A DNA stretch of 64,000 nucleotides from NCBI GenBank assembly GCA_030018895.1, contig JASEHM010000001.1:2199-66198 (forward strand). The letters run 5' to 3'. The translations under genes were made by a program, and so were the position numbers. The notes beneath the pieces were generated by a model. It made no database searches. It was not told where the DNA came from and saw only the letters and a program-made list of their open reading frames with translations. The DNA comes from Candidatus Omnitrophota bacterium. GTDB taxonomy: Bacteria; Omnitrophota; Gorgyraeia; Gygaellales; Profunditerraquicolaceae. Positions 1 to 54,000 of this stretch are shown here, in pieces (positions within the stretch are counted from its first letter, which is position 1; every line of letters starts with the position of its first letter).

Positions 1-3000
1 CTTCAGATTTTAACCTATCTTAAAGGTTTTCAGCTTGACGTCCCAGAGGGATGTGCTGGAAATCCCCTACCTTCTCAAGGTTGGATTAATAAAGGAAAAA
101 TATCAGTAGGAAAAATATCAAAAGACATAGAACTCACAGGCTATTTCTCCTTTATTATAAATCCTGTACAGACAAATAGACGTAAGTTTCAAGCACAGGC
201 AATAGCCACAATCCCTTCAGAATTTTTAGGTATGGCTAAAGAAAAGGATATTGAAAAAATTGAGGTTAATTCAGCTACTTTTGGAGGAAGCGCTAAAGAG
301 CCTCTGGCGCGTACTTTAGGTACAGCGGACATATTTAGTAAAAGCAAAGAGAATAAAAATGATTTTGTGAATAGAATAGACGTTGATATTATTGCCAATA
401 AGAAAAATAAGGAAGAGGCTTTTTGGAATGTAAATCAAAAAACGCATACGTATTTTCAGCAAGGAAAAAAAATAGAAGAGAAATACACAGGTTGGATTGC
501 TGATCCTGGTGTAGTATTTCAAGATAATTTAGAAGTAAAACGCAAGATTAAACAAGAATTGGAGGCAATAGGTCTGAACAATGTTAATATATATTCAGAG
601 CCGAACATAGGAGCACATGTCATTCCCGCGAAAGAGGGAATCCAAGCGTCCGTCGGTGACTGGATGCCCGCTTTCGCGGGCATGACATCCGTTCCCCCGT
701 TCACTGACATATTACCAGATATTATCAGTAACAGTATCACTGTATACAGTCGTGATTCTAAAGGCGAATATGGAAAAAACCCATTTTTCTTTGGCCAGGA
801 ATCAACGCAAGATCCCTCCAGTGGATGGAGCGGCGCTTTTGTTTACGCAGATTTTAAAGGCGGGAACTCCCAAATAATCTATGATTATAACAAAGAAAAA
901 GTTGATAAATTAATAATCGGCGGCTTAATCAATCAAAATTCTACTGATGTACGTCTTATAATAGGAAGGGAAGACAAAGGCATTGAATTAACCAAGGACA
1001 AAGGAATTATTATATCAGAAGGGAAAACAGGCCTTTTAAAGGCTGTGCTTGATCATTATAATGGTGACAATAAACTGTTGAATCAGGAAATTAATGATTT
1101 TATTGTTGTTGCTTTGCCTAAACCTAAACAGGGATTTTTGCCAAACGCAATTACCACTCAAGAAAATATTACAGCTGCCTATAATGTTTTTCATTCAAAA
1201 ATTAATCCAAATGAACAAGATGAACAAGCAAAGAGCCAAACAAAATCTATAGAGAATGCACTTGCGCATTTACAGGGTAGTTATAATGAAGGCCTGAAAA
1301 CAAAAGTAATTAGCAACTTATCTTCTGCTGATTCTTCAGCCACGATAGGCGTTTTGACTCATCTTTGGACAAGCGATAACTACAATTTTGCTGTTAGTGA
1401 AATTATTGGTAAGGTTACCTTGTTTAATATCGGCAGTGACTTTAATGTGTACACTGATAATAGTGTTTTGACAGTTAAGGGTTTTGCCCGTCCTTATGAT
1501 TCTCGGGTAGGCTTTGACAATACAAGAATCATTAGTACGGTTGAAAAAAAAGACGATGATTACAATGTTGACCGTAAAATAGCCGCACTCTCGGGTTCAG
1601 AGGCAATTAATGAGCCAAAGATGAAACTTTTTGCTGATTTTAAGTTTCCTCTTGAAATGTTAATTTTGAATAACGAGAATAACAAAATCATATCAGCAGG
1701 AAAATTAACAAAAACAATAGAGTTTGTTGCTCGTAAGCTTGAGGGATCTGAAAAAGAAGGTTTTCATGTGACTCAGGATAGTTGGTTTCCTGTTTTGTTG
1801 GGTCACTTATTTAACCGTGACAAAGTTAAAAACTTCACAAAAGAAGAAATAGAAACAGCAAACAAAATGATAAAAGAGTTTAAAGAACAGCATTTTACCG
1901 GTAATATTTATCCCCAAATCAGGTTTTCTACGGATGACAAAGGCAGGCCGGATATATCTACTATATCTACGCTTTTTGTCGCAGGTTTACCTGAATCAAT
2001 TTCCGAAGTAAGTGGAAAGAAAATATATGTTCCCTCAGGAGAAAATAAAACCAGCAAAGTAATTACTCTTGGCGGCTTGCTTGGAGATGAAGGCCAATAT
2101 CAAGCTTGTTTGACGCCTAGAAATTATATTGCTAATAAAGAGCTCTTAGAAATATCCGGTTTAGCAGAGTCTAATGCCGCAGTATTTTTCCCTACTGTAA
2201 CAGGATTTTATGGCCGTATACCTCAAATAGGAGAAGTAGAGAATTTAGTATGGTCAGATAAGAGGCCACAAGGCAATGTTTCTTTAAAAATAATTGAAAA
2301 CTCTCCTTTTGAGCCGCTTTTTTGGGGAAAAGGAGGAATGCTTGGTAATGAGAAGCCTTCTGACTTTGGCTATAACAAAGAGATTAAATATCAGCAGTTT
2401 AACAAGGTTTTAACAGACGCTAGAGTTAATCAGGATGAAAAAAGCGGACATAATGTGCTAATAGGTCTTTATGGCCGTATGCAAGAAGGTAATGCTCAGG
2501 ATAAAATTTTTAATAGCTATAATGCTATTTTTCAACCTTTCTCAAAAGAAAAAAAATATTTTTCCTCCCGGATTATTGACAATACTCCTTACACAGAAAA
2601 CTTAAATTTTGCTAGTTTTGAAGGCATTGGTTCTTCAGAAGGAGGCATTAACTGGAATAAGGGAGAGATTGAAACAAGCATATTTGAGGGCAAACAGGAG
2701 TTTATGAGTCAAAAGATTGTCCCTAAGATTATATCCAATATAGTGTTTTTAGACTGGGATATAAAGAATTTTAAGATTGAGAAGGATTTAGCCTCTGGGA
2801 AGAAGAATAAGTCAGAAGGGCCTGTTCTTGATGGTTTTCTTTATCTACGTTTAGCAGAAGCAGAAAAAAAAGGGCTTTTACGCGGGGTTGTTTCTAAACT
2901 GAATGTAGAAGCAAAAGATGCAGGAGGGTATGCTTTAGCTTCTGGGAAGCTCTGGGAGGGTTTTGATTTCTTTAGCCCATCCGGAGGAGAGATAAATCCT

Positions 3001-6000
3001 TATTTTAGAGGACAAACCTTTTTAACTAACAATGCTGAGTGGCAGGTTAATTGCTGGGATAAAGAATCAGTTGAAGGGTTCAAAGATGGTAAGGGTAAAA
3101 TTAATCATATAAAAACAAACTCGGATAAGAAATTCACTGGTATTGATTTTGCAAATAAAGGGATTAAGCTTATTGATAGTGCTTTTCTGGCTCTTTACAT
3201 AGGCGAGGCTAAGAAAATTAAGTTTAGTGCAACAGGAGAACTTACCTTAGGCAAGGATACAAATTATGCCTTAAGTTTGTGGATAAATAATACTAATAAA
3301 AAGATAAGTAAGTTTTTGAACAATGTTAATAAGGGTTTAGGGTATCAGCTTGTTGTTAACCCTAAAACCAGAGATTTGGCAATAGGTAATACCCCCGAAA
3401 GCATTCCTTTTATCAAAGATGAAAAAATTAATCCGAAAATTTTTGAGAATTTCGCTTTTTCAATTATAGAAGAGGGAAAGATTAAAATCAGCAGAAATTT
3501 TGGGATTAATAATAAGGAAACAAGAGATATTATTCCTTTAGAAAAAACAAAAAATATCGCAAGCCTAACATCAGGTAGTATTCTTCCTTGGTATAAGGGA
3601 ATAAGGCAGATTCCGATTACTGCAGGGTATAATGATATTGCCATAAAGATTGATTCTTCTGGCTCAGGTAGTAAACCTTCTACTTCTAATAAATTAGCCA
3701 ATAGCTATTTTGAAATAGATCATGTTGCCCAGATTACTGAAACTGCAAATGAAGGAAAATACGGAAAGATAGGAGTGGTTAAAAAAGGGGAAAAACTTCA
3801 TTTTTCGTTAGTTACAGAAGAAGGCAAGGTTAAACTGTTTGATTTTGCTTATAAGATTGTTCCTGGGTTTGAGGGGGTAAATGTTAATCTTCCTCGGCCG
3901 GAATACTTTGGCCGTAAGGAAGAAAATGACATTGCTGTGCGGACAAATGGAGGAGAGTTTCTCAAATACGCTTCGGATGTATATATGAATAAAGGAAGAG
4001 CCAATGCCAATGGAGAGTGGAAGTTCTATGGGCATCGTCTGATAAAAATAAAAACGACTACGGATTCTTCTATTTTAGGGGCAGACAAAGATAATGCTGT
4101 TTCCCGACAGAATCGTTCCATAATCTTTAAAGATGATGAAGGGAAATTTGAAGTGAAAGGGATTGTGCCGGTTTATAAGAAATGGGGAGGCGATGTTGAG
4201 AATATTGGCACAATTGAACAATTACAAGACTCAAGCGGCCTGAAATGGAAGCGCTTAACAGGAAACATAGCTAAGTATTTAACTGCGGATAGTCAAAAAA
4301 ACTATAGCTGTAAAGGAAAATGGCAGGTACAATTTCCTGCTATTCTTTTAGAGAAAACAGACGATAATAAATATAATATTACAGGGGTGCAAATGCTGGT
4401 TGGCAAGGGAGGAGCTCCTTATAAGCTTCCTTCTGCGTCTTTGTCTGAAGGCAAAAAAGTAGGAAAACGGGCTGACAAAGCTGACAAAAAGGAATTAATA
4501 ACCACGCTTCGGGGTTTAGGCAGAGATATTGTTGAGCTTCCTAGAGGAAGTTATAGCATAAGGCTTGAGAATAAAGATAATAAATTTTCTTTAGGTAACC
4601 TTGATTATTCAGAATTAGGCACAATGAAAATAATTTTCCAGAAAAACTTAGCCATTCCGCATAATCAAAATGAGGTTTCTTATTTTTATCCTAAAAATAG
4701 CAAAGGAGAGGTAGTTTTGCATTACTTAGGAGACAGCCCTGTTGTAGAAGGTGTTCAAGGCGTTAAAGATCTGGTTCATATTAAGCATGATTCTTCCCAA
4801 AACACAGGGAATATAATACAGACATCTTATCTGGGTTTAAAACCGGAAGAAGTTTTGAAATTAATAAAAGAGAATCCAAGTGCACTAATTAAGGTAGGTA
4901 AATTTGGAGGAATTAAATCCGGGGAAAAAGCAGAAATTACCTGGATTAAAATGAGTAAAAATAACCTTCAAGGGGCGTATGATCCCAATGCCCCTTCTGA
5001 GATTGTTTTCGTAGATGGCAATTCCAAGGGAATTTATATAACTCCCCAGGGAGTAACAATTTCTTCTCTTGCGGAAAAAATAGAGATAAATGGCAAAAAA
5101 GTTGAAGATATATCTCCTGTTGGTGTATATTTTTATCGAGATGAAAAAGGGCAAAAAGGATTTTACTCCTGGGGTCCTTTAGGGACAAAAGAAATTAGAA
5201 TGTTGAAAGACGGAGAATTTAAATATTATACTATTCTTCCTGACGGCAGAAAGATTAATGGGCGGATAAATCCTAATCTTTTTAGTTTAGAAAATGCCAG
5301 CCTGATTAGTTTTTCCTCAGGTCAACTTGCTTTTGTCTATCAGGGGAAATTTTTTGTAGGAGAGGAAGAAATAAAGGCTTTAAATAAACTTCCCCAAGGA
5401 GTTTTAAATACAATTTTAAATGGACAGCAAACCCAGAAGATGTTTTCTGAATATGTCAAGGGGATTAAGGAAGCAGGAAACCCCAAAAAAGCAGAAGAGC
5501 TTAACAAGCATTTATTGTTTAGGGGTGGGGCTATTATAGACGATGAAAACCGAGATAAAGAAGCATTAGGGTTTGATATTTTTAGCCAGGAAATTAAGCA
5601 AAAAAGATTTAAAGATTTAGGAATATCTAAAAAAGATGAAGCTTGGCTGAGAAAAGAAGCTACTGAGCGTTTGCAAGGTTTAAGCCCGGAAAGTAAAGAA
5701 TATAAATACGGATACAGTAAGCTCTTTTCTGAATTTACCAATAAATGCGGCAAGCAGATGCTCGCTAAAGGATTTGTTCCTTTGGCTGTAGTTGATGATG
5801 CAGTAACTTGGGCTGATGCAGGAGTAGGGGTAGGGGCAACTGCGCTTGTTGTTACGGGTTGTGTTTTTGCGGCTCCTGTGATACTAGCGGGAGGGGCGGT
5901 AGGGGCGGTAGGGACAATACTTATAGGAACAGGCGTGAGTATAATAACAGGACTTGCAAATGCGGAATTGTTAAAATACTATACCACAGGCACGCACTTA

Positions 6001-15000: not shown

Positions 15001-18000
15001 AGCTTAGATTTGGCTCTGAATCAGCAGAAAGAGCGGATATTCTTTGTGATACAAGGCAGAGGAGATGAATTAAAGGAGATTTATAAGAAATTAAGTGTCA
15101 GGACTCTTCGCAATGACGCGTTAACATCAAGAAGTAAAATTTTAAAAGCGGCCTTAGAGGCAATAATAAGATTTGAGGTAACAGTTCAGCCCCCGGAAGT
15201 AACCGTGTCATTGCGAGGAGCGGCAGCGACGAAGCAATCTCTGGTTAAAAGAAATAATAATGTAAAAGTGCCGGTAGCATCGCTTCCTTCTTCTCCGGCG
15301 CTACCAGCTGGGGAGAACACAACTACACAGGCAGGGACATTTATGGCAACAGGTGGCTCAGTTCTTACTGGAAACGCGCTTAATGGCACTACGTCAATAT
15401 ATCCTGCTATTCCGTACTCAATAAGCGTTTATCATTTAGGCAATAGAACAACACAGATTCCCATTAATATAGGTTCAGTAACTATACTTGGCCCGCCTTA
15501 TGGTCCTTCGACTGAAATTTACTCAATTTTCAGCCAAGGTTTTAGCATAAATGGGCAATCGAATCAACTATTTGGCGCACTTGTAACAGTTTGTTCAAGT
15601 AGCATGGCTTTAGATAATACTAAAACCGTAGGTTCTGGAGTTGCAAGCAGGGAAAGCAACAATACAGAAGATGCCCAAAGTGTAATCGCAGGTTCTGTAA
15701 ACGGAACTGGTGATGCTAGTAGTGCGATTATTAGAAAGGTACCAGGATTAAGATTACCTGAACCTTTAAGCAGGTTACCAAAGTGGCTTAATATTACGAT
15801 AGCGCCTCTTGGATATTCCTCATGTACTACGGGTTCGCCTAAAAAAGGCGCATCAGGTGTGCTTGGCAAGTTTTTGTTGTCTGAAGTTTTTTCTTTGGGT
15901 AAAAAGGACGAAGTTAGTGGTGCCGGAAGTGCGATTGCTGCTAAAAAGCAACTAAAGGCTTGGAGTCTACCTAATAGAGCAGATAAAACTTCGGGTCATT
16001 CTTTAAATGTAACCAATTCTTTTTCAAATAGAATTCCTGCAACATGCGGTTCGAATAGTTTCCAAGTTAACGATTTGGGAAATACAGGACGTTTTCTGGG
16101 TATAAACAACATAGAACTGAATTCAGCCGCTAACCATAAGGCACATGGATCAGCTCCTCCTTGGAATGTATTTAATTCTCTGCCCAATAAAATTTCCGCA
16201 TTATTATTTGCAAAATTCAACAATCGCCCCTTTAATCGCATCCTTAATATAAGCACCGGCATTCCATTAGAAGCGCTAGATTCAATTCTTTTCAATAAAA
16301 ATCTATTCGTAGAAAATAGCGGCACACAGGGTCATAATTACTTTAAAAATTCCGCAAGAAAATCTAACGTAACAGATCAACTTTTGAATGTATCTCGTCA
16401 TTGCGAGGGCAAAGCCCGAAGCAATCTCAAAATAGAGATTGCTTCGCCTTCGGCTCGCAATGACATCAATTATGTTAGTGATACTGTCATTGCCAGGAGC
16501 GACAGCGACGAAGTAATCCTTCTGTATGTCATTCCGAGCGAGGCCGTAAGGCCGAGTCGAGGAATCTATGTTCTTTTTAGATCCCTCGACTCGCTTTGCT
16601 CGCTCGGGATGACAAGACAACTGTCGCTCGCTCGGGATGACAAAGCGCTTCCGAAGGCTGAACTGTTACCTATCGCGGGATTTGCCGCAGGCACTTTTTC
16701 AGGCACTTTCACTGTTTCTGCTGATAATGATTTGAACATTCTGGCGGTAAAGGTAAATGATACTGCTTTGGTTAAGGTGAGCGGCAGCACAATAACCGCC
16801 CAGAAAAGTGTTTTCAAAATAGGGAATGACATTGTCATTGGTCATGTTCTCTCAGCGCAAAACCAGGAAAAAGAAAGTGGTTCCCCGATGGCAAAAGGTA
16901 TACCTGTTGAACCGCTGAACTTGGTTCAAAGAGAGTTAGAACTGCAGGCAGTCCAGATTATAAATTATTTAGCTAAAGTGAAGAAGGTAAATTTTGCCCA
17001 GGCAAAATACAAAATAATAATAGAAGCTTTAATGTCTATATTTGAGATTATTGGCGCAATAGAAAAAATTACTTGTCAAGGCCCTCCTTGGTCTGTCCTT
17101 ATTTTCGTTATTTTAAAAGGTCAGTATAATCAAGGAGGAAAAAATGTTGAAACTAATAGAATTTTAAAATCAGATGAGAACCTTAGAAACTCAATATGCA
17201 ATTCAATATTTGAACCAAATGCGCCAAAATTGTCATCTCTGGGAACAAAAGGAAAGACAGCTCAAAGCTCTCTTAAGCAGATCTCAAACAATGTCAAGGA
17301 AATTAAATATAACTATGGCATAATAGAGTTAAATTTCTTACTCGCTTTCGCCACTGTTTTATTAATCAAGCCGCAAATGCTATTTACCAAAACAGGTATT
17401 TTAGTGTTTGCGGTTTTTGTTGTTTCTAGCAGCCTCCCAGCGACCCCCCTCCTGGGACTGACCTTCGCTACGGAGCTGCTAGAGCAACAAATAATATTTG
17501 GAGGTGCGCTATGTGTCCTATTAAGTTTAATGAATTACAATTTAACCACATTGTTGAATCTGCAACAGGACCCACAGTCTTTGCAGCGGCTCGTGAAAAT
17601 GGCAGCAGACATTTCAGGCTCTTCCTTATTAATGAAGAAACTGGCAGTGTTAGAGTTCGTAATGGCAGTGCTAATACCTGGGAAGAGCTTTGGGGCAGTG
17701 CTCACGACAGTATCATCAACTGTCTTATTGCAAGCCGTAATAGCTGCATCCTCACTTATAGGACTAGAACAGGTTTCTAAGCGGTTTTTTTCTCCGTGGG
17801 TAATTATAGGGATGTCTGGTATTGCTGGTGTTGGCATAGGTTTTGTTTCAGCAAATCCGGTTCTTTTAAATTTCGTAATTGGAATAGTGGCTGGTTGGTT
17901 ACTTATACGAGAAATAAATAAAAATGTATCCCAAAGACATTTACAATCTTATAGAAAAGCTTCAACACCATGGCCTTTCCTAAAAATTGCTGTTCCTCTT

Positions 18001-21000
18001 TTAATGATTTTTTATGCCTGTTCTGACCTTCTTGACGATAAATTTTTGAAAAATAGAGAATTTATAAGAGGTCCAACCGTAGAATTGGTTCTTGATGTTA
18101 ATAAGGATGGAAGAGGAGATATTCGTATATCTTATCCGGAAAAAGATAAAATCTTTTCTAATGATTGGAAAGTACTGAGTGAGGTTCTTAGCGGCATACC
18201 TCCAGAAGATTTACAAAAAATAAAAGTAGTGGAACTTCGTTGGGAGCATGGTTCTTATAATTATCGTCCTGATTATAGCAAGAAAGAAGGAAAAACTCTT
18301 TATCTTACCATACAGAGTCTCAGACATTATGAGTGGGATAATGGTTTGAATATTTCTATTGACGGCAGCCCTAAGGTGGATGCTTTACGAAAACAGATTG
18401 AGGAGTGCCTTAAAACTTCCAGCTCCGTTACCTCAGATAAACGTATCTTGAGCCTGTTTGATCTTGCAAACAACAGACGAAGAGCGCAAGTAATAATCGG
18501 TATCTTAGGTATTACTTTACTTTCTTTCTTAAAAATAGCTCCTTCTGTTGCCGCAGTGCCTGAGGCAGAACAAGTTTTAAGAAACCCACCTGTAGAGATA
18601 TTTTCTCATCATACCTCCACTGTTACGCCTGTTTTTCCATTAGAATCAGCTCAAGAAAAATTTTCTGATGATGAAATACATCAATTCTCTACATTTGAAA
18701 AATTTGAAAAAATAGATGAGTTTGAAAATGTTTTGACCAATTATAGAAGGAAGAATGAAGGGTTTAACAAATTATATAAGGAAATAATTGAAGAAAAAGG
18801 CGTTGAAATTGTCTTCTTAAATAAAGATTTTGGTTTTCCTGCTGAATATAGGGTGTGGGAAAGAGAAAATGGAACAATTTTGTTTGATTTGCCCCAGTTT
18901 AAAAGTGGAGAGGAAATGGTTGTTGCCCTGGCACAAGAGTTATTCCATGCAGAGCAATTTATAGGAATAGCCCAGAAGACAAAATGGATTTCTTTCGTGC
19001 CCTTACGTTTATATTTAAGGGGTTTATTCTTTAGTGTGGAAAATGCATTTTTTGGAAGGGTATTTTTTGAAAAACCCGCCTTTGATTACGCTGAGAAAAT
19101 TAGAAAAGATTTTGGCTTACCCCAGAAAGATAAGTGGGAGGATCTGGAAAGATTTTATCAATTTCAACGACCAATGGATATTGTAAAGCCTTTCGTTGCA
19201 TTATTCCTATTGGTGGCATTAATGGGGCTTGGATATTGTTTTGTATATTACTTTGTAAAGAAAAATAACTTTTCATTAAATACCTTTAAAAAAGTAATAG
19301 TTCAGCTCTTGGAAGCGTCTCGTCGTCATTGCGAGCGACCGAAGGGAGCGAAGCAATCTCAAAAACGTGATTGCTTCGTCGCTGTCGCTCCTCGCAATGA
19401 CAAAATGCTTCCAAGCGCTGAACTGTTACTTAAAAAAGGAAATACCTCCAGCTCCATTACCACAAACTTTATAGAGGAGATAGTAAGGTTTAATGAAGAT
19501 TTGGAGAAAGCTGAAAATATTCCGTATTTAGTAAAGAAAGATTCTTGTTCTGTTGGTTCTCCGATTATGGGTAAGGCGGGCTCTTATTTAAAACACGTCA
19601 TATTTCAACAAAAAGGATATTTAGTAATTCTTGCTTTTGTTGTTGCTTTTGCCGCAGCATATTTGATGTCTATCCCTGCTGGAAGTATAGCTGCTTTATA
19701 TGAGGCGGGGGCTGCTAAACTGATTTTTTTACAAAAATTACAGTTGTTCGGTTTGTTTATGGCTTGTATTACTTTGGCAGTAATTATGCTTCAGTATTCC
19801 TTTACAGCTGTGATAGGAGTTATGAAAATCAAGAAAGGTAAAAATGCAGTATGGAGATATAGCTATAGAGAAATCTTCGGTAAAAAAGATTACCAGGCCT
19901 GGAAATCGCGTCTCAACTATGGAGCGCGTCGTTTGACGTTTGAGTATTTAAAGAATAATTATAAGCCTGTTGAGCATGGCCCGGTTCGGGATATTATAAA
20001 TACATTTAAGAGCTGGAAAGTTTCAGTGATAGTGTTTCTAATAGTTTCACTTGTATTAATTACCGCTCCGGAAGCCGTACTAGGATTAGCGGTTTTTGTA
20101 AATGCTCTGATTGTTACCTTACTTTTTCGGATATTACTAAATGCTACGATTTGGTTCTTCTATGATTCCTTCCCGCGCCGTACTGCATTAGTTGACCTGG
20201 CATATGCGTATTATAAAAAAGATCTATCAGGTGTTGCCAATAAGTTTATAGTAATAGATGAGAATAATCCTGATGGCCGAGCAATAATCTTGACAGACAT
20301 TGAAAAAGAAGCAGATAAATTCAAAGCTGAACTTAGAATCGGGAGCAAAGGTTACCGTAGGCAGCTTTTTGTTACCCGGTTAATAGAAATGGCTCCGCTT
20401 GAATCAGCAGGGCTCAAGTTTGTGAAAAGCAGGATGACAATTATCCTGCTTAGCGCGATCATTGTCCCTGCGCTTATGCTGAAGTTTATGCCGGGAATGA
20501 GCAGCGAATCATTCCTTTCGGAAGGATGGCTGCAAAACTTCTTTATAAAGTATCACTTTCCTCATACCTGGAGCGAGCTTATGCATACGGCGTTCCTTGT
20601 ATACGGGTTCAGGTACTTTGATTTAAAAAGAATAGCTATGATGATCTGGTCAGCAATGCTGAATAAAGTCTTTCCGGGTATGCCTATTGATATAAGCGCG
20701 GCTTATGATTTATATAAAAGGAAAAATAATGATAAAAACGTGAAGAAGTATCTTAAGCTTGCGCTTGAAAGAGGACTTTTAAACTCCTGGGGCAGAAAGA
20801 ATTTGAAAACGATATTGCGCAGTGAAATGGAAATGAACAAAGTTGTATTTGAAAAAGTAGGTAAGTTTGAGCTTGGATGGTGGGTAATCTCTCGCCTAGT
20901 GGCAATTATCATTACAGCGTTTGTATTTATACCCTTGATCCCTGTTTTTGTCGTTTTTTATCCTTACGTTGCAGGAAAGAGAAAACAGGGAGTAAGAGTT

Positions 21001-24000
21001 AACCCGTTGATTAAACTTGCGGCTCAAGAAGGAAAGCAATTCTGGGCAAGCCTTGTTTATATGTCAACGATAAGCGCGGAAATAAGCGCAGTTATAAGCG
21101 GAACAGATTGGTTGGCTACGCATGCGCATCCGATTTTAAAGCCGTTTGGTTTTATAGCCCAGAAATTTGCCTATGCTTTGGAAAGTGAGTATGGCATTAT
21201 ATCTCTCGGCCAATATGCAAACTTAACCTTTACCGGTATGACGAATATTGACCTTACTAATGTGGCATATCACTGCATGGGAGGAAAAGGAGATTTTCAG
21301 GCAAATTATGAAATTAATGCGGCTTTTGGCTTAATCCAAGAAACAAAGATAAAGGAAGAAGCAAGAAGAATTGTAAAAGAAATATCGGAATTAGAGGCTG
21401 AAAAAGAGCTAAAGTTTAGCCAGCAATATAGGCTTGAGGAATTAAGGCATAAGCTAAAAGATATATTTGCTTTGGCTAAGGCTAAACAATTAGAGGAGGA
21501 GGTAAAGAGGCTCAATGACTCAGCTAAACCCAGACAAGGGAAGACGTTTGCTGATGTGGAGGAAAGGTTTAATGAGTTAAAAGGGCAGGGATTTCCTGGG
21601 TTTGATCCTGTTAATGGGGATGAGCCCTGGGTTAAAGAGGTTAAGGGATATTTAGGGCAATGTAATTCTCAGCAACTCCAAATTTTAGAATCTTTAATCA
21701 AATCAGGCAAATTAAGAGCTGGGCCTGATGAAAAGTCAGTTTTTTACGGTGCTAATAATGGCGAAATTATTCTTATTGACATCAATAACAATCCTGATTT
21801 AGCCGCAACTTTAATATACGAACTTAATGCCTTCCAAGGTGGCACTCCTGAAGAAAATCAAAAGGTAGAAAGAGAATTTGAGATTGCTTCGCTCACCAAG
21901 GACGCTCGCAATGACGAAAAGAAAGCGGACGTTCGCAATGACGAGGGGGCGCAAAATGCGGACGCTTGCAATGACGTGGGGGCACAAAATGCGGTCGCTT
22001 GCGATGACGAAAAAAAAGTTGACACTTGCAATGACGAAAAGGCGCAAAATGCGGTCGCTCGCAATGACGAGGCGTCTCTATCAGGCATTAATTGGCAGAT
22101 GCCTATACAAGGATTTGACCCTAAAAATATACTGTCTGAAGATGAATTTAACGCTCCTCGCTCTGGGGGTAATGGCCATGAAGGCCTTGATTTCCGTGCT
22201 TCTGAGGGCACACCTATTCACGTAGCTGAACAGGGGATAGTTTTTTATGCAGGAGAAGGGAATGGTTATGGAAAGGTAGTTATTATTAATCACAATAATG
22301 GCTATTTTACTTTATATGCCCATAATCAAGAAAATCTGGTTAAAATAGGTGATAAGGTAGAAAAAGGCCAGAAAATTGGCCTGGTAGGTAAGAGTGGTAA
22401 TGCTGAGCAAATTGGAGAAATGTTGCATTTTGAGATACGGCAGGTGGCTAAAGAAGGAATTATTAAGGAATATTCAGATTTGGTTGCTTCGGAGAATGAA
22501 GAAAATGGTACAGTTAAAATTTTAGATCCTGCAAAAGAATTAGAAGCCCTATCAGAGAAGCCGCAATTAATGGTGGATATGATGATGTTTTCGGGGAATA
22601 GTTATCAGCATTCTTTTTTAAATATACCAGTAGATGAATATCTTGTTAATAGTTATCTTTTGGGTGTTGAAGAAGAATATTCAGACTTAGTTGCAAAAGA
22701 GAATGAAGATAATAACACAGTTAAAATCCTGAATCCTGCAGAGAAACTTAGCGGACAAGATCCAGATAATGCCTATTTTGGCTGGTCCCATGAAGAAGTA
22801 AATAGAGAGATGAGTAAATATGCAAGGGAAAATGCGATAAGAGAGCCTAATTTTGAAGAGAAGAGGTTGATTGAGTCGGCTTTAGGCAAGGCTTTAAGAT
22901 ATTTTAGCAAGACTAATTTGGGCAGGAACCCGCCAGGGGTTAAGATTATTGAGACAGAAAAATTAACCTTTGGCGCAACTTATGGTGAATACAATCAAAC
23001 CACTTCTCAAAATAGCCTCCTCTATATAGAAAAGCCGCTTATTAACAGTCCTAAATATAATCTTGCCTGCGTATTTATCCATGAACTTAATGGAAAATCT
23101 CATTTCTTAAACTGCTTAGCAGAGTATGATTTTAAATTAAGACAGATTGGAGCAGAATTTAGCTTACAGGTAAGTTTATCTCTTGATTCTCTGGCTAAGA
23201 ATTACCAGGAAACAAAAGCCAACTTTAGCAGAAATACCAAAAACACCATTATTGCCACTGCTCTCTTAGCCAGTCAAATTATCTCTCAGTTTTCAGCTTT
23301 TGCTATTCCTGCTGTAGAAGCCGCCCCTTCCGCAGTACACAGGGTGGTCACCCCAGAAACTTATACTGTTCGGAAAGGCGATACATTATGGAGACTTTTT
23401 AAGGAAAAATGGAATGATATTTATCAGTTGAATCCTCAGATTCAGGGCCGCAAAGGCGAGAAAATAGACCCTGCATATCCTGATACTAAGCAAATAGTAA
23501 TTATCTATCCAGGGGAGAACATTAAGATACGCGGGGAACAGGAACAGGTTAAAGCATCTATAGATAAGACTAAGATAGACAGGGAAGAGGTTAAAGTATC
23601 TACAAAAGATAAGACTGAGACAGACAAGAAACAAGTTTCAGAAGTAAATCAGGGTGTCATTCCCACCCCTGTTTTCACGGGGGTAAACTCCAGCGGGAAT
23701 TCAAGAGGGGATGACAGAATGGATGCCCGTTTTCACGGGCATGACAAAAACAAGAGGCGAGAACTTCAGAAAGCTGAACTGTTACAGATAAAAGGAATTA
23801 GACAGGAAGGAATCAGCCCAACCTGTGCGCTTGAACAGGTTTTTGGCCAGGGTTATCAGAATTGTCAGCAAGAATTGGAAAAGAGATTTAATACCTTGGT
23901 TAAAGAATCAGGGGTTGAAGAAAAAGGGATAAAATACCATGAAGAAGGCCTGACTTTGGAGGATTTGAAGGAGAAATATTTAGAAGGTAAGCGCTGGAAA

Positions 24001-36000: not shown

Positions 36001-39000
36001 TTGCGCATTCACCAATTTGTAGAAAAGGCCTTCAAGAGCACAGGTGAAATATCCAAAGGTATTATCCATGTGAATGAAGAGGGCTTTGTAATAGACACAG
36101 ATTTAGATAAAGCCAAACAACTTCTTGCCAATAAATACAGGCTCTTAGTAGAAGACCAGTATATTCTTATGAACACTGCCTTTGCCATATTAGGCCCACT
36201 TGCCCTTGTGCGCTGGGCGATTCTTTCAGGCATTGACATAGATACAGAAGGTAATTTTATCATTACAGAAAAAGCCAAGGCTTCTTACAACACAAAGAGC
36301 TTTTATGACTTAGTCCTAACCTATGGCTCAAGTGTAGATACCTTTGGTGATTTAGTGCCTCCTATGGGCGAAGACTTAAATATCATTGACTTTATCTTCT
36401 CTGTTGGCACCAAACAGCTTGAAGAGGCCAAGAAGAAAATCCACGCTGAAGCCTTACCTATCATAGAAGACATGGAAGGTAGGCTACAGGATTTACGCCG
36501 AGACTTCAAAGAAGATAGTTTCTCCTTGAAAAAATTAGAGGACAGTTTGAATAGCCTCTTAGAATCTCTTAAGAAAAGAATCCAAGAGGTTCAGGATGAG
36601 AAGACTGTTTCTGTGTTAAATGTCTGTGTATCTAGCATCTCTCAAATCCTGCTGCGTCAGATGCTCATTGAGGTTTTACGCCGCGGTGGCGCTGGCTCAA
36701 AAGCATGGGCTATACCCATAGAGGGTGAGTGGTTGGATACTGGAAGAACCATCGAGGAAGCACAAATCATTCTGGCCGAGGGAAAAGCCAACAGGCAGAT
36801 AGCCTCGGTGTTTGACTTTGAGAAGTCCATTGCCGCAAAGACCAATGTAGCAAGCCACTCTTTTGTCAGCATCATTGAGGCAGAACCTAAATCTCAAGTT
36901 GCCACAGATTCCATTCAGATTGCCTCTTATCTGAAAGGCAAAATTCATATGGACTCCAGATCTCAGGTGCACCTTGTAGACTGGCAAGGCGATTTACACC
37001 TCAACTCAGACGTGGTGATGTCTGAGGCAACCACCAGATATCAAGAGAAAGAATGGGTCGTGCACCTGCTCTGGGGATTACAGGATGGAGAGACCAATAA
37101 AATCAAGACCCACATAGGCCGTTCCTTAGAGGAATGGTTCACTGAGTTAAGTATTGACATAGATAAGATTTGGCCTCCTGCAACTGCGCATCTCTTAAAC
37201 ACTGCCAGAATCTTCCCTGGCTTAAGTCAGCAGATTTTAGAGCAAGGAAAGCAAATAGATGACTTGGATAGAGAGCTCTTTGACTCTATGAATGATATCT
37301 GGGGCTTCTTACAAGGACATACTGCCCCAGTTCCTGTTGCCTGGCTGAAAGCTTTAGAAGCAGAACGCCTCTTCTCTATGACTGATGCCTACAGTAAACC
37401 CGCCACTGAACTGATGCAACAGAGAAGAGAAGGATTGATGAGGAAGAAGAAAGCAGAAGAGAGACAGAATGCAAAAGGCTCGTCTCCGGTAACGACTTCT
37501 TCACCTATTCCAACTCTAAATAATACTCAGCCAGATCAAATAATAAATACCGATAATGCGAACAACGAGCGCTTTGGCATTGCCAGAGAGCTTACCAAGG
37601 GCTTGGTAGCAGAATTACCCCAAGTATTAGGTAAGGTAGATATCTACGAGTTACTTAAAGCAGCTAATGGCATTCTGATTCTTGACCGTAACCGCTCACC
37701 CACTGACATAGATGCTCATGCGGATAAAGAACGTAACTCTATTTGCGTCACTGTGCGTTCTGATGAAGACTTCCTTAATTTATCTATCCCAGAAGTAGCT
37801 ACCACCCTTATCCATGGAGCCATAGAGCTTGCCACAAAACAAGAAGCCTTAAGACGTAATATCGATTGGGAACAAATCGCATCGCTTGCCCAACAAACTG
37901 CCCTTAACTTTGCCCAGAAATATCAAGAAGTCATTACCCACAGATATGACCGCTTGCTGATGAGACAAGATATGCAGGTTGCCTTTAAAAATGGCTGGCG
38001 CGTAAAGAAGATTTACCAGACTGCCTTTAACCATGTTCAGGCTGATATGTATGCCTCCCAGGTTAATCCTGAAGATTATCCTCAAGACACTGAAGTCATC
38101 CCTGTAGCGGACCCCCCTCCTTATTATAATAAGGTAAGGGCTTTTGGTAATGGCTTAGCTAACCTGAATATAGTAAGGAACTTTGTAGAAAGGCTAATCC
38201 AGGAATTAAAATTAGAGCCGGGAACCTATAATTTAGTAGAACTTCTGGGTAATACCTTAATTATCGGCTTGCACGGTGGCGGCCAATCAGCCAGGAATCC
38301 TAAATATACCCAGATTGGTAAATTTAATGGTTATCTGCCTATAAGGAGCTTAAACAAAGACTTACCCGCTACCCTGCAGGAAGAACTCCTGGTGCCAGCA
38401 GCGGTCTTAAGCAGAATCTATCCAGACAACTTACCCGGCTACATCAATATCTACGGAGATGCCTTAATTACCTTTAATCCAAGAGAAGTAGAAAAAATTA
38501 TTAAGGCTAATCCTGAAATGGCCCAGGGTTTGATGATCTTCTTAAGAAAAGTTCCTGCTCGCGAAGCTTCTACTTGGGGTGCAGGTGCCGTAGATGAATC
38601 CTTGCGCATTCACCAATTTGTAGAAAAGGCCTTCAAGAGCACAGGTGAAATATCCAAAGGTATTATCCATGTGAATGAAGAGGGCTTTGTAATAGACACA
38701 GATTTAGATAAAGCCAAACAACTTCTTGCCAATAAATACAGGCTCTTAGTAGAAGACCAGTATATTCTTATGAACACTGCCTTTGCCATATTAGGCCCAC
38801 TTGCCCTTGTGCGCTGGGCGATTCTTTCAGGCATTGACATAGATACAGAAGGTAATTTTATCATTACAGAAAAAGCCAAGGCTTCTTACAACACAAAGAG
38901 CTTTTATGACTTAGTCCTAACCTATGGCTCAAGTGTAGATACCTTTGGTGATTTAGTGCCTCCTATGGGCGAAGACTTAAATATCATTGACTTTATCTTC

Positions 39001-42000: not shown

Positions 42001-45000
42001 TTGGGGTCTTTAGCAGAAGATTCACAAAAAATAGAAAATGACATTGATTTTATTCAATTACTCAATGAGGTAATAGATGATTTTAAAAAGAGGTTTCCTG
42101 ATATTACTTTTGTGGTTGAGAATAAGGCAGATGAAATTAAATTACCTGGTATTCGAAAAATAATAGAACACATCTTAAGGGAAATTTTCCAGAACAGTGT
42201 TAAGCATGAAGGTAAACAGATTAATATAGAGATTTCAAGAACAGAAGGCAAAATAGAGATTAGTATAGAGATTAGCATAATTGATAATGGTGAGGGTATT
42301 TCTAAAGAGAAACTGGAGAGGATTCGTAAAGTTTTGGCGCAGGCAGATACAAAGCAAAGCGAAAAAGAGAGTAGGGGCAGAGGCCTTTCTTATTTAAATA
42401 AACTTCTTTATGAGTACACTTTAATTGAAGAAAACCTAGAAATATATTCTGAAGGTGAAGGCAAAGGCACAAGGGTAAGATTCTTTTTACCTTTAGCTCA
42501 AGAAAAATACAGGGTGCCAGATATTCATAATCGGATAAAATTTATTATCCATGAGATAAACAATATTCTATGTACAGTGCAAAAAGCTTTTTTAAATGAA
42601 AAAAATACTGTGTTGGCAGATGCAACCAAAGGCACAATTTTAGTAGTGGATGATGAAGAAAACATTTGCGTCATATTACAAATGTGTTTCGAACAAGTTG
42701 GTTATACGGTTGTTACTGCTGCCACAGTAGAACAAGGATTGGAGACTTTCAAAGAAAGGCAGAAAGAAATAGGATTAGTTTTAATAGATTATACATTACC
42801 TGGTGGAGATGGATTACAATTAACAGGGAAGATTAAAGAGGTTTCTAAAGATATTCCTATATTTATTATGACAGGAAGGAGTCTACGCGAAGAAGATATT
42901 TTAAACTCAGGAGCAAAAGAAGTAATTCCTAAGCCTTTTAAATTTGAGGAATTACTAAAAAAGGTAGAAGAAGCGGTAACAGTTCAGCGTTCAGAAGTAA
43001 ATCAGGGTGTCATTCTCGCCCCCGTTTTCACGGGGGTAAACTCCAGCGGGAATCCAAAGATGGTTGACAGAATGGATGCCAGTTTTCACGGGTATGACAA
43101 AAACGGGAGGCGAGAACTTCCGGAAGCTGAACTGTTACAAGAAGCGGTATCTTCAGCAGTAGAGATTGTTAAAATGTTGTCATTGCGAGCCCGCCACACT
43201 TTGTGGCGAGGCGAAGCAATCACTTTTTTGAGATTGCTTCTTGCTTCGGTTTCGCCTCGCAATTGCAATGACGCGAAAATGGATTTTTTCAGCGTTTTCC
43301 TAGAATATCACTTGATACAACAAGCCTTAAAGGGTTTTTTCGGTCGACTTAATTCAGACTTTTCTAAACAACTTTTAAGCTCTCGCCAAACAATTCCTTT
43401 AGCAGGTTCTCCTTTTACAGAATTAGTTTCTAGTTCTTTGTTTGTTTTTAGTCTAACAGAGGCTATTAAGTTGATTCAGATTTTTGTTAAGGAGAAGGAA
43501 GGGGCTGAGATTGGAGAGAAGATAGGGAGCCTTAGTTCTGAAGAACTAAACGTCCTTACGGAAGCGATTATTGCTTGGAAAGAGTTGGAAGAGATTGAAG
43601 TAGGAGAGAAAGAAAAGAAAAGATTCATTGATATCTATTCTTCTAATTGCCAGTTCAGTAGTTTTGTTGGTTTTTTAAAAGATGCTATGCAGTCAAGGTT
43701 AGTAGAGCAGAGGGCAGAAAGAGAAAGTATTCTTTATGAAATTGTCGAGGAAATTGGGAAATTAGAGGGGGTTAGCCCGGATAAAATAGAGGAAGAGTTC
43801 GCTAGATTTAAGATGAAGGCATTAGAGGAGCTTCTTAAGGCATGGGGGTATAGCTATGAGATAGATGAGGAAGATAACTTAAGCCTTATTTGTTCAACAG
43901 ATGGACTAAAGGAGTCGAGTTATAAATTAACACCGCGAAAGCCTAATGACCCGGAAAAGAGTTTTCTTTGGGATTTTCTTAAAAAGTATTGGGAGCAGAA
44001 AAATACCCTTTCTGGGCAAAAGAAATTATTGGAAGGATTTAAGAAAAAATTGCCTATAGAGATAGTAGAAGTAATTATCTGGGATGGCGTTTTTCGGGGG
44101 CTATGGATTAAAGATAGATTCGCCTTTCTTAAGAAATTTTATCCGGAAAAAGTAGATAATGGAGTTTTAGATCAACTTGCCTCTGGCCATATCTTCTCAA
44201 GATTACAAAATATTTGCCTTCCTCAAAATTTAAAAGACGACTTAACTTGTTATCAAGGAGTTTTGCCTAAAGAGCTTATTTTTCTCCTTCCTCTCCCGGG
44301 AAAAGGAAAATATATTTATATGTTACATAACTGGGCTCAGGCCAGTATTGAAAATAAGCAATTTATCCCTCTAATTAAAGAAAAAAAGATTTTTTTCTAT
44401 TTGTTTAGGGCAATAGATGTCATTATTAGAGAAAAGGAAAAGATAAAACAAAGGATAACTGATAGCCGTACAGGTTTGTATAATGCCTGGTATTTAAAAG
44501 AAGAGCTGGAGAGACAAATAGGTTTGGCCAAAAGGCATGATAATCCCCTGGCGATATTAATGCTGGACATAGATCATTTTAAGAATTTTAATGATACATA
44601 TGGCCATTTAATAGGCGATATGGTTTTAAAGTATGTTGCTGAGGTGTTTAAGAGGATGGCAAGGAAAACGGATATTGTTTGCCGTTATGGCGGGGAAGAA
44701 TTTATGATTATCCTGTCTAACGCGGATTTAGAAGGAGGGGTGGTTGCCGCAGAGAGAATTAGGGAGGCGGTGAAAGAAATGAAAATTAAAAATATTAATG
44801 AAAAAATAACTATAAGCATTGGCGCAGCTTCTTTAGATAAGAGTTTAAGAAGTATCTCTGACTCTGAACAATGCCAAAAGGCATTTATTAAAGAGGCTGA
44901 TCAGGCGGTTTATATAGCCAAGGCAAAGGGGAGAAACCGAACAGAATTTACTATAAAACAGGTAATCCCTTATTTAGAGCCGGAAGAAGAATTATTTCCT

Positions 45001-51000: not shown

Positions 51001-54000
51001 AACTTTCGTTTCTTGGAGAGGCTGGGATATTTTCCTGTTACAGATACTCAATTGAACCATTTTTCTCGAGAAGTTCAGGACTTACTGGATGCGCATCTGG
51101 AGTTGGGCATGATGCCTCAAGAGGCAGTCTTTTCTTTAGGAAGCATGTATTATTTGCAAGGAATATTTTTGCTGGCTTTAGATTATAAAGAAATGGCAAG
51201 AAAAAATATCAACAAGGCTATTGACCAATTTGGTTTAATTATATTTAAAAAGGGGGGTCCTTTTGGGCTGATGGCATACCAATTAATTCTAGAAATTCAT
51301 CAAGAGATGCCGTTATTCTTTGGCCAGCTTATTCACAATGGTGGAATGGAATTAACGTTAGATGGGTTAGCTGAAAAGTATGGGAAACATTGTCCTGAAG
51401 AGATTATAAAAGGCCAGACAGAGTTCATAAAGAATTTGACAGAACAGTCCCAGTCGGAGAATGAACTCGCAACTTCTTCTTCTGCAAGGAGTTGTGTAGA
51501 AACGGTACTATTAAATTCACTAAACTCTTCAAGCCCTGTTAAGCGGGTAGGTCCTGTTGGATCCGTCTCGAAATTTGAGTCTCTGCTACGAAAAGAGTTG
51601 GCCGCGATGAAGGATTCCGGGGGAACGAAGTTGTACCCGTCCAATGTGTCGCGTCAGAATAGGGTCACGATTGCGCCGTGTCGGGTGGATAGGGTCACGA
51701 TTAGTAAAGAGGCCCGGGAGATATTCAAAAATGCAAGGCCCAAGTCCAGCCAGCCGTCGATCATGTCGGAAAAAGACCTTAACGGCAATCTTGATTTCAT
51801 ATCGTCCCTGTGTGAGTTCGTAAAGCAGTTTATAGAGGTATTTTGGACAGTGAAATCTTCTGAGGATACGGATCACGAGAACAAGGATGGCGTTTCTGCG
51901 TCTTCTGTCAAGGAAGGATCTTCTTCGGTCGTTTATTCCAGCAGTCCGAAGGCTTCTTCCTCATTTAAGCAGGCACGAAGCCGCGCTCCGCCCTTTGTAG
52001 TTGTGTTATTAATAGTTCCCTTCATATTTTGTGAAGGAGAGACAAGGAATTTATCAAAATCCCTGCCCCCATCTTTACCTTCGTTTTCAAAGCACAGTAG
52101 AGTTCTTGAAACAAAATCTCTACCCACATCTTTATCTTCGTTTTTAGATCATAGTAGAGTTCCTCCCCTTTCAAATTACAGTGGAGTTCTTAAAAACGCG
52201 CGCATTAATTCAAAAGATCGATTTGGAATAAAGGCATGGACAGCCTATACAATGTTGGATGAGATTACTAAGAAGCTGTATTCTGAAAAAACAGTATCAG
52301 AGCGTCGTTTAATAAATAAATACGTATTAACCAATATTTATCATGAATCGCTTTTGATATATAGGAGGCCTATATATCGTGGCGGGACTGAGCGCGGCTT
52401 GGCTCAAATAAAGGTGGGCACTGCCAGGGATATCCTTGAGAGGCTTGTAAAGGGAAAAGCTAATTGGGAGGAGTTTATTGCAGATATTAGCGGTTATTCC
52501 TTCTATGCAGACCTTTTAAACGAGAATAATGCTGTTCTTGGCAAGATGTTAGAAGATAATGATGGGTTTAGTTTTATTCTTTCAACAATATATAGTATGA
52601 ATAGGTTAGATAAGGAATCTCTGCCTGTAGATTTAGAGGGGATGACAAAGTGTTGGGCCAATTATAATGGGATTGGGAAAAAGCAAAGAACGCCTCCAGA
52701 GGAAAAAAGATTAAAGGATTATAAAGTTCATGCAGAGATAATTAAGCCTATTCTTGAAAGAATCATTTCTTTAGAAAGGTTCTTAAATTTTGAAGAGTTT
52801 CTGAATCCTCCAAAAAATATTGGAAACTGTTTCCGTCCCAATCGGGAAACTGTTTCCAGCGCAATCGGGACAGTGGGATGCAGTGAAGTTGACATAAGCT
52901 GTTCTGCTTTGAAAATGAAGGGGTTTGTCGGTTCGCCAGTTAGCCGGTTGCTTGAAATTGCCGGCTCGCCGGTGAAATATAGCTTGTTAGTTGATATGTT
53001 GTTAATACTTGTTGATTTTGATGGTTTTTGCAAGGCAGGGATGGAAGATGTTCACGGTCTTGAGGATAGGATTAGGGTCTCCTCGCCCGTATTTTCGATA
53101 CCGAAAGATACCGAAGATTTGGATTTTGCTTGGAATTTGATGGAATTAAATGCTTTTAACCCCGGATTAGAACATAAAATTTCTTTTGTCTCCAGTCCAA
53201 TTTTTAAAATGCGGCCGAAGGTAACAGTTCAGCGTTTGGAAGTTCCAAGCGCTGAACTGTTACCTTCGGAGACTGAAATTGGGGGTAAGAAAAGGAAGGA
53301 AGAGAATGATCTTTTTATTGAGATGGATACGTTAAAAAAGAAATTGATGGGTTGTCTTAGAAAAAGTCCTTTACTTGCAAAAATATTACAATGGATTTTA
53401 GATGAATTAGAAAAAAAGAACAATAATAATGGAATCATAAAAAATAAACTGTCTTTTTTTAGTCCACACCAGAAGCGTAAAGTAAAACAAGAAATTTTTG
53501 CTTGGATGAATAAGGAGCATTGTGAAGTGGCAGCCGAGTTTTCTACGGAGTTAATTTTTCTAGTTGTGGATTTGGTTAAAAATATAATCTTTTCTATAAA
53601 AAACGAAAAAATAAATAAAGATAAATTAGAGGAGATTCAGTCTTCTTTGGATGAGATTGTCGCTTTGAATAACAAGATTGAGAAAATAGCGGAACTGTGG
53701 CGAAAGATAAAAGAGGAGATAGTGGAACAAAATGTAGGCATAGTAACATCTATCGTGACTAAAAACTATTTTAATGGGGCTTTATTCTTTGAGGAGCGGA
53801 TACAGGCAGGGTTGATTGGGCTAGCTGAGGCTGTAGAGAGGCACGACTACAGAAAAGGTATATTATTTTCTACCTATGCTGATTGCTGGATTAAGCGGGA
53901 AATACTAATGGTTATGCAAAAGGAGAGTAGTGATATCTGGATTCCCGTGTATATGCAAGAGAAGCATACAGGGCTTGAGAATAAAAAGACAGAATTAATC

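Follow-up and report, generated by a model that had tools for sequence, protein, structure and literature searches.

The window analysed here is a stretch of 64,000 nucleotides from a Candidatus Omnitrophota bacterium (contig JASEHM010000001.1), and the whole of it is a single open reading frame (ORF) on the + strand. Frame 1 runs through 21,333 codons (positions 1-63999) with zero stops, and the other five frames show from 726 to 2205 stops each. The Pfam domains Helicase_C, Peptidase_M23, Fucose_pyrophosphorylase, Glyco_transf_5, HATPase_c, Response_reg and GGDEF were found along this frame. Multi-enzyme giant proteins have been described for Omnitrophota (10.1101/2023.11.21.568195; 10.64898/2026.06.07.730766); the mixture of domains in the window resembles these proteins, and the frame belongs to a giant gene and has the appearance of a fragment of one of the Omnitrophota type. 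[quoted passage not shown] Inside the gene, at 19294-19429, lies a palindromic element of 136 bp, which is very probably a non-autonomous MITE formed by two ~65-bp ends of an insertion sequence (IS) of the IS66 family, similar to the ISBst12 group, joined by a 10-nt loop.

The complete element occupies exactly the boundaries proposed by the initial annotation, 19294-19429: a hidden Markov model (HMM) of the family, built with 38 distinct copies, none of them from the window, covers it over its full length (model positions 1-137, E=1.5e-34), and the closest copy, in locus L019, is 91% identical. It shows two nested levels of inverted symmetry, with outer arms of ~23-24 nt and inner segments of 33/34 nt around the 10-nt loop. 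The left terminal inverted repeat (19294-19316, + strand, GTAATAGTTCAGCTCTTGGAAGC) contains the blocks GTAA.AGTTCAGC and GAAG, and is followed by the subterminal module A (19325-19358, + strand), organised as GTCATTGCGAG-CGACCGAAGGGAG-CGAAGCAATC. The central loop (TCAAAAACGT) occupies 19359-19368, and downstream of it are the inverted subterminal module B (19369-19401, - strand, reverse complement GTCATTGCGAG-GAGCGACAGCGA-CGAAGCAATC) and the right terminal inverted repeat (19407-19429, - strand, reverse complement GTAACAGTTCAGCGCTTGGAAGC). The symmetry is less complete than first described, since the 24-nt terminal arms have three mismatches and not one (GTAATAGTTCAGCTCTTGGAAGCG vs the reverse complement GTAACAGTTCAGCGCTTGGAAGCA), the right arm, quoted as cgcttcc..., reads tgcttcc..., and the central hairpin, described as perfect, pairs perfectly only in its outer 11 bp (GTCATTGCGAG/CTCGCAATGAC) and its inner 10 bp (CGAAGCAATC/GATTGCTTCG). 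The 13/12-nt cores of the hairpin, CGACCGAAGGGAG and GAGCGACAGCGA, are two different module variants, of which the latter, with 50 occurrences, is more frequent in the family than any other module core, and the differences between modules A and B recur in the copies of other genomes, so that they are family features and not decay. Folded as single-stranded DNA, the element reaches -51.2 kcal/mol, the value for dinucleotide shuffles being -18.1 +/- 2.8 (z=-11.9, with none of 200 shuffles as good), and folded as RNA it reaches -83.3 kcal/mol (z=-14.4), with a duplex of ~60 bp. It contains no transposase gene: the only stop-free frames are the phase read through by the host gene and one antisense ORF of 42 amino acids. 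An Rfam search of the element reached no family, its only match being the plant miRNA precursor MIR2646 (28.7 bits vs a gathering score of 245), and the promoter and terminator scan gave no signal attributable to the element. Over all loci, the core X of GTCATTGCGAG-X-CGAAGCAATC is highly variable (107 distinct cores among 331 occurrences) and is often a perfect mini-hairpin with differing stems, such as CCCC-GTA-GGGG, GCAC-GAA-GTGC, GGCCGC-GAA-GCGGCC and a 9-bp stem in GAGTCCGCCA...TGGCGGACGA, which looks like covariation that keeps a small stem-loop. The two commonest MITE cores form no hairpin.

The initial annotation had suggested that the flanks could reveal a target-site duplication, and a perfect 8-bp repeat, TTAAAAAA, does abut both ends of the element (19286-19293 on the left and 19430-19437 on the right, with 0 mismatches between them). 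This intact duplication, together with a GC content of 51% in the element against 34-36% in its flanks, offers better arguments for a fairly young insertion than the near-perfect symmetry from which recency had been deduced; the argument from symmetry is valid only in part. To locate other copies, an end-specific pattern, GTAACAGTTCAGCN{10,30}TCATTGCGAG, which joins the outer arm to the inner segment, was used. The pattern was tightened to repeat plus module after a scan of viral contigs with the terminal repeat alone, whose seven matches share one unrelated coding context (peptide PVTVQRFEE, presumably ribonucleotide reductase), have no partner arm and were discarded as false positives. In the GTDB genomes, taken as one genome per species (185,579 species), the pattern identifies 31 loci, all of them titled Omnitrophota or Omnitrophica and distributed over at least 15 assemblies, with ~18 loci contributed by one groundwater metagenome-assembled genome (MAG). 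The same pattern matches at least 120 metagenome contigs. Among the matches listed, 82 distinct copies from other genomes and metagenomes have both flanks after removal of duplicates: 61 of them show a perfect 8-bp flanking direct repeat and eight more show it with one mismatch, and in none of the 82 do the adjacent control 8-mers agree with one mismatch or fewer. The duplicated target sites are 78% A+T. The modal length of the copies is 136 bp (28 copies), lengths of 135, 137, 146, 163 and 169 bp are also common, and the copies occur in both orientations, all with the same terminal arms. The long-range repeat pairs of loci L068 and L156 were set aside, being separate MITEs that bracket ordinary genes. 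In the literature searched, no prior description links Omnitrophota, or ISBst12 and IS66, with MITEs; judged from the sequences scanned, the family is restricted to Omnitrophota and previously undescribed, and belongs to a known kind of element.

Two full-length elements show the same ends. Locus L011 is a contig of 2,382 bp from an Omnitrophota MAG, in which the outer arms of the family are 2,274 bp apart and each is followed by a GTCATTGCGAG...CGAAGCAATC module. Between these ends it shows three ORFs, which encode a DUF6788 protein of 107 amino acids, an IS66-family transposase of 456 amino acids (NCBIfam NF033517, 240 bits with a cutoff of 180; Pfam DDE_Tnp_IS66, PF03050, 1.6e-32) and a GIY-YIG protein of 98 amino acids. 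Locus L109 is a second and diverged full-length copy with the same gene order, whose transposase is 61% identical over 366 residues and whose GIY-YIG protein is 76% identical. Each half of the window element can be aligned with either end of L011 and of L109, and the blocks GTAA.AGTTCAGC, GAAG, GTCATTGCGAG and CGAAGCAATC are invariant across the MITE halves and the IS ends; therefore, the 136-bp element corresponds to a left IS end, a loop and a right IS end, and the alignment indicates that the central hairpin is two subterminal modules brought together. In ISfinder, IS66 elements generally start with GTAA. The outer ends of the MITE family, GTAACAGTTCAGC, match at 11 of 13 positions the end GTAACTGCTCAGCA of ISDge4, an IS66-family element of the ISBst12 group from Deinococcus geothermalis with ends GTAACTGCTCAGCA / GTGACTACTCAGCA, a 449-aa transposase and an 8-bp direct repeat, whose transposition has been seen (PMC12898284). 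The captured Paracoccus IS66 members ISPpa5a and ISPpa7 also give 8-bp repeats (PMC3281130). The duplication, the family copies and the ends shared with an IS66-family parent support the reading of the initial annotation, namely that a mobile element bounded by terminal inverted repeats had been inserted in frame. In both full-length elements the DUF6788 ORF is upstream of the transposase gene, in place of tnpA/tnpB, and the stop codon of the GIY-YIG ORF, of ~95 amino acids (L011 125-421; L109 ~745-1038), abuts the subterminal module. Locus L132 was considered as an alternative parent and rejected, as it contains a MITE one of whose modules is broken up by a Mutator/IS256-like ORF. The 1,212-bp element of this locus (1874-3085), with the family arms, a perfect 8-bp duplication (TAACTTAT) and a transposase ORF of 296 amino acids of the Mutator/IS256-like type, reads as a nested insertion into a MITE.

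The insertion preserves the frame of the giant gene. Element and duplication add up to 144 bp (136+8), which makes an insert of 48 codons and not of the 45 amino acids first estimated, read in frame as KK-VIVQLLEASRRHCERPKGAKQSQKRDCFVAVAPRNDKMLPSAELLL-KK. Once the element and one copy of the duplication are taken out, the reading is again ...N T F K K G N T..., with ...AATACCTTTAAAAAAGGAAATACC... as the reconstructed empty junction. In the hydropathy plot, the insert is located 12 residues past a strongly hydrophobic segment of 22 residues, in a hydrophilic stretch of ~110 residues which precedes the next hydrophobic pair; the hydrophobic segment is a predicted membrane helix, and the insert would lie in a hydrophilic loop. 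An AlphaFold2 model of 333 amino acids around the insert, obtained with no alignment, is uninformative on disorder (mean predicted local distance difference test score, pLDDT, of 44). The frame was examined in thirteen copies of 136 bp, namely the window copy and twelve others that the genome scan had identified. All thirteen are stop-free in phase 0 (GTA ACA GTT CAG...) of one orientation, 11 of them also in phase 0 of the opposite orientation, and the remaining four frames show 1-4 stops each. Because 136+8 is divisible by three, about one third of the insertions into a gene would neither shift nor stop its frame. In the window, the five left ends (15178, 16369, 19294, 42976 and 53221) are all at codon position 1, which is the only stop-free phase, the right ends (16669, 19429, 23785, 43138 and 53263) are all in one phase, and the four paired copies, of 136, 163, 301 and 43 bp, are each a multiple of three after adding 8. 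These constraints on phase and length are not expected if the elements are spliced out or bypassed, and therefore translation of the window copies is the simplest reading. Elsewhere, in-frame copies are rare in ordinary Omnitrophota genes (~1-3 of some 80 copies). Only the genome copy of L035, and perhaps that of L019, is read through by an ORF, both likewise in phase 0, and none of the 75 metagenome copies among the matches listed has an open frame that extends 40 codons on both sides. The L035 copy is inside thpR, a conserved enzyme gene, whose product aligns with the 184-residue Pyrococcus enzyme (PDB 1vdx) from residues 1-149 to 1-147 and from residues 206-232 to 157-183, leaving a net insert of ~47 residues exactly at the element, which is an empty site at the protein level for this sibling copy.

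The window contains at least eight copies or fragments of the family by the family HMM, including the one at 19294, and they extend from intact copies to decayed ones. The half copy at 15178-15245 (+ strand; HMM positions 1-65, E=3e-18) has one terminal repeat and module B, lacks the other end, and is read in frame as VTVQPPEVTVSLRGAAATKQSL. At 16369-16669 there is a composite of 301 bp, in which the family terminal repeats enclose a complete module hairpin and additional second-type modules (GTCATTCCGAGCGAG.../...CTCGCTCGGGATGAC); a target duplication could not be recognised at its ends, and with 8 bp added it amounts to 309 bp or 103 codons. Its second-type modules (GTCATTCCGAGCGAG...CGAGGAATC / ...CTCGCTCGGGATGAC) are nested beside the usual ones at 16477-16640, and apparently an element can gain modules or exchange them as units. 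At 21877-22072 (+ strand), a module fragment is followed by ~4.7 tandem copies of a 33-bp unit that contains the module arm CGCAATGAC; these repeats encode ARNDE/VRNDE/ACNDV-like peptides immediately upstream of the Peptidase_M23 domain, and a transposon fragment appears to have been amplified here into a peptide repeat. A subfamily of 163 bp, with the family terminal repeats and a different interior, has an intact copy at 42976-43138, flanked by the perfect 8-bp duplication AAGAAGCG (42968-42975 and 43139-43146; 163+8=171 bp, 57 codons), and a 5'-truncated copy at 23637-23785 with an intact right terminal repeat. In the alignment of the latter with 42960-43150, the mean column identity is 86% over the whole alignment and the similarity extends from ~23637 to the right end. 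An older copy at 43154-43277 (HMM E=2.6e-9) shows an intact module hairpin and decayed terminal repeats, and a mini-palindrome of 43 bp at 53221-53263, with 27-nt arms that are 96% complementary, contains only two terminal repeats and no interior (43+8=51). The giant gene has thus received insertions repeatedly, with the frame kept each time.

Other repeats were found in the same ORF. In a strong hairpin at 603-702, with arms of 42 nt that are 79% complementary, the two modules (GTCATTCCCGCGAAAGAGGGAATCC / GGATGCCCGCTTTCGCGGGCATGAC) are of a related yet distinct kind and the GTAACAGTTCAGC arms are missing; possibly it is a second family of palindromic elements. Coding tandem repeats of about two copies each are located at 23541-23637 (45-bp period), directly adjoining the truncated MITE copy at 23637, and at 52055-52162 (57-bp period). 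An identical pair of 16-nt inverted repeats with an identical spacing of 275 nt is present at 36047-36353 and again, 2.6 kb apart, at 38648-38954, from which it follows that a segment of the giant ORF was duplicated close to the fucose pyrophosphorylase region.

The origin of the insert may be pictured as follows. Each end of the MITE consists of a 23-bp terminal repeat, GTAA(C/T)AGTTCAGC....GAAG, followed by the subterminal module GTCATTGCGAG-variable core-CGAAGCAATC, and an IS66-family DDE transposase, produced by a full-length copy elsewhere in the genome, would recognise these ends in trans. The element would have been inserted into the AT-rich site TTAAAAAA through a staggered cut, whose repair duplicated 8 bp. 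Its survival within the gene would depend on a total addition of 144 bp and on an insertion that began at codon position 1, the one phase, in either orientation, without a stop codon, so that the giant gene stays open and gains 48 codons. The insert is probably tolerated rather than useful.

Several observations weigh against this picture, or against parts of it. No allele or orthologue without the element that spans the 19294-19429 site was found in the protein and metagenome searches, and therefore the insertion at this locus is deduced from the duplication and the family and not directly seen. A word-indexed protein search with the 488-aa flank, from which the insert had been removed, gave no matches, and the metagenome locus search with the same flank gave 163 pattern matches with no relative among them. 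The exhaustive HMMER search with 550 amino acids, insert included, gave six matches: four to the insert peptide and two to pieces of the flank that do not span the site, one of them annotated as derived from an Omnitrophota MAG, which lends support to the assigned host. Locus L159, found through the other flank match (P0001), is 36-54% identical over ~700 residues downstream of the site and carries no family copy; upstream of the site it is unrelated, not collinear and broken across three frames, and does not provide an empty site at base level. This only detectable homologue of the downstream region (L159 2715-4911, split over three frames) is on a metagenome contig of 10.6 kb, and its split is due either to frameshift errors or to the existence of this part of the giant gene as several genes. 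On the side of the parent, the tnpA and tnpB domains of classical IS66 elements were not detected in the full-length elements, which have the DUF6788 and GIY-YIG ORFs instead; the ISBst12 group is defined by a single transposase ORF without tnpA/tnpB. L011 is a short contig of 2.4 kb with a duplicated segment at one end, and its exact termini are perhaps affected by the assembly, and no transposase is present in the 64-kb window itself, which covers only part of the source genome. Finally, with 135 and 137 bp being frequent lengths too, a length that keeps the frame is modal and not a rule of the family.

A different explanation is that the segment is a conserved protein-coding module, either a repeated peptide motif or a duplicated linker, which is not mobile and whose palindromy is incidental. 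The segment is indeed in frame, and related peptides (RHCERPKGAKQSQ..., ...APRNDK) recur in the giant protein and in four other database proteins. Most copies elsewhere, though, are not read through by any ORF, and they lie in both orientations with 8-bp target duplications. The same module is also read in different frames, as RHCERPKGAKQSQ in the copy at 19294 vs SLRGAAATKQSL in that at 15178, and the opposite module as DCFVAVAPRND in the window vs IASSLSLLAMT in L035; therefore, conservation follows the DNA and its pairing and not the peptide. Protein-level conservation, which the initial annotation had raised as the point that would speak against an insertion, is thus not what the copies show, and a coding module is extremely improbable. 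There is a small chance, compatible with a MITE origin, that the hairpin has been co-opted as an RNA or DNA structure, such as an RNase III site, a ribosome pause or a recombination hotspot. Transcribed Correia elements of Neisseria are RNase III substrates, the RNA fold of the window element reaches -83.3 kcal/mol with a duplex of ~60 bp, and several hairpins of this kind are placed along one ORF of more than 64 kb. Against this, no Rfam family and no promoter or terminator signal was found in the element, every stage of decay is represented among the copies of the family in the gene, as expected for neutral insertions, and the pairing is fully explained by two IS ends that are inverted copies of each other.

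It is also conceivable that the hairpin was moved by an enzyme other than an IS66 transposase, either a RAYT protein (IS200/IS605-type) or a GIY-YIG nuclease, the IS66 genes of L011 and L109 being merely nested in it. The GIY-YIG ORF that abuts one module in both full-length elements would fit this, as would the GTCATTGCGAG...CGAAGCAATC modules without terminal repeats at 43177-43270, with related forms at 603-702, and, as L132 shows, a copy can have other ISs nested in it. Nevertheless, a duplication of a regular 8 bp is typical of DDE transposases and is unexpected from RAYT or GIY-YIG enzymes. In addition, the outer ends match those of the mobile ISDge4, and the L011 and L109 transposases, only 61% identical, share the same ends and gene order, which indicates co-inheritance and argues against two chance nestings. 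In L011, moreover, the space from the module to the stop codon of the GIY-YIG ORF is too small to house another set of ends, and a genuine nesting is seen, by comparison, in L132, where a Mutator/IS256-like ORF breaks one module. Movement by a non-IS66 enzyme is consequently very unlikely, and a MITE derived from the ends of an IS66-family element is by far the explanation that we favour.

Among known systems, the closest in behaviour are the Rickettsia palindromic elements (RPEs), for which in-frame insertion into unrelated genes has been described (Ogata et al., 2000, as reported in PMC10969869); by descent, the window element would be a derivative of an IS66-family, ISBst12-like element. 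As far as RPEs are treated in that account (PMC10969869), both are palindromes of ~100-150 bp which lie in protein-coding genes, in frame and without stops, adding ~45-50 residues, and both show copies from intact to decayed. The likeness is one of behaviour, the host is an Omnitrophota bacterium instead of Rickettsia, and the family described here differs from RPEs in its clear terminal repeats, its regular 8-bp duplication, its identified IS66-family parent and its mostly intergenic copies, the in-frame ones being exceptional except in the giant gene. With the ISBst12 group of IS66 (ISDge4; PMC12898284) the family shares ends of the type GTAAC..TCAGC, the 8-bp direct repeat and a transposase of ~450 amino acids (456 in L011). 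Unlike these ISs, the window element has only 136 bp and no transposase, and in its full-length relatives from Omnitrophota the ends are unusually long (~65 bp) and include a subterminal module; these relatives also carry the DUF6788 and GIY-YIG ORFs. Correia/CREE, ERIC and MITEAba12 elements are likewise short, non-autonomous and multicopy, with terminal inverted repeats, target duplication and long hairpins, but their parent families and duplication lengths differ (the Correia duplication is TA, and that of MITEAba12 has 9 bp), and none has been reported in Omnitrophota or in giant genes in the literature searched. Classical bacterial MITEs are sometimes intragenic, with read-through ORFs (PMC10969869). 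REP/BIME elements, in comparison with the window element of 136 bp, its regular 8-bp duplication and its IS66 parent, are imperfect palindromes of ~20-40 nt without target duplication, mobilised via RAYT, a Y1 transposase of the IS200/IS605 type.

Each insertion has at most one chance in three of leaving the frame open, yet the frame is unbroken and all the copies inside the giant gene are in the stop-free phase, and therefore the continuity of the giant frame has been selected since the insertions took place. The local loop sequence of the giant protein tolerates additions of 17 to 103 residues. The new Omnitrophota MITE family and its IS66 parent are useful for annotation, since translations of the element now yield spurious "hypothetical protein" fragments. 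With these copies, the in-frame accommodation of selfish DNA in genes, known from Rickettsia, is found also in a phylum far removed from it and in the largest genes of bacteria. More tentatively, and with the odds clearly against it, the giant gene may be a sink for MITEs, gaining new coding sequence time and again from insertions that are stop-free and preserve the frame, and the hairpins of ~60 bp could also serve as RNase III or pausing sites that punctuate its very long mRNA; if such a sink were general, the capture of MITEs would contribute to the growth and the linker diversity of the giant proteins of Omnitrophota.

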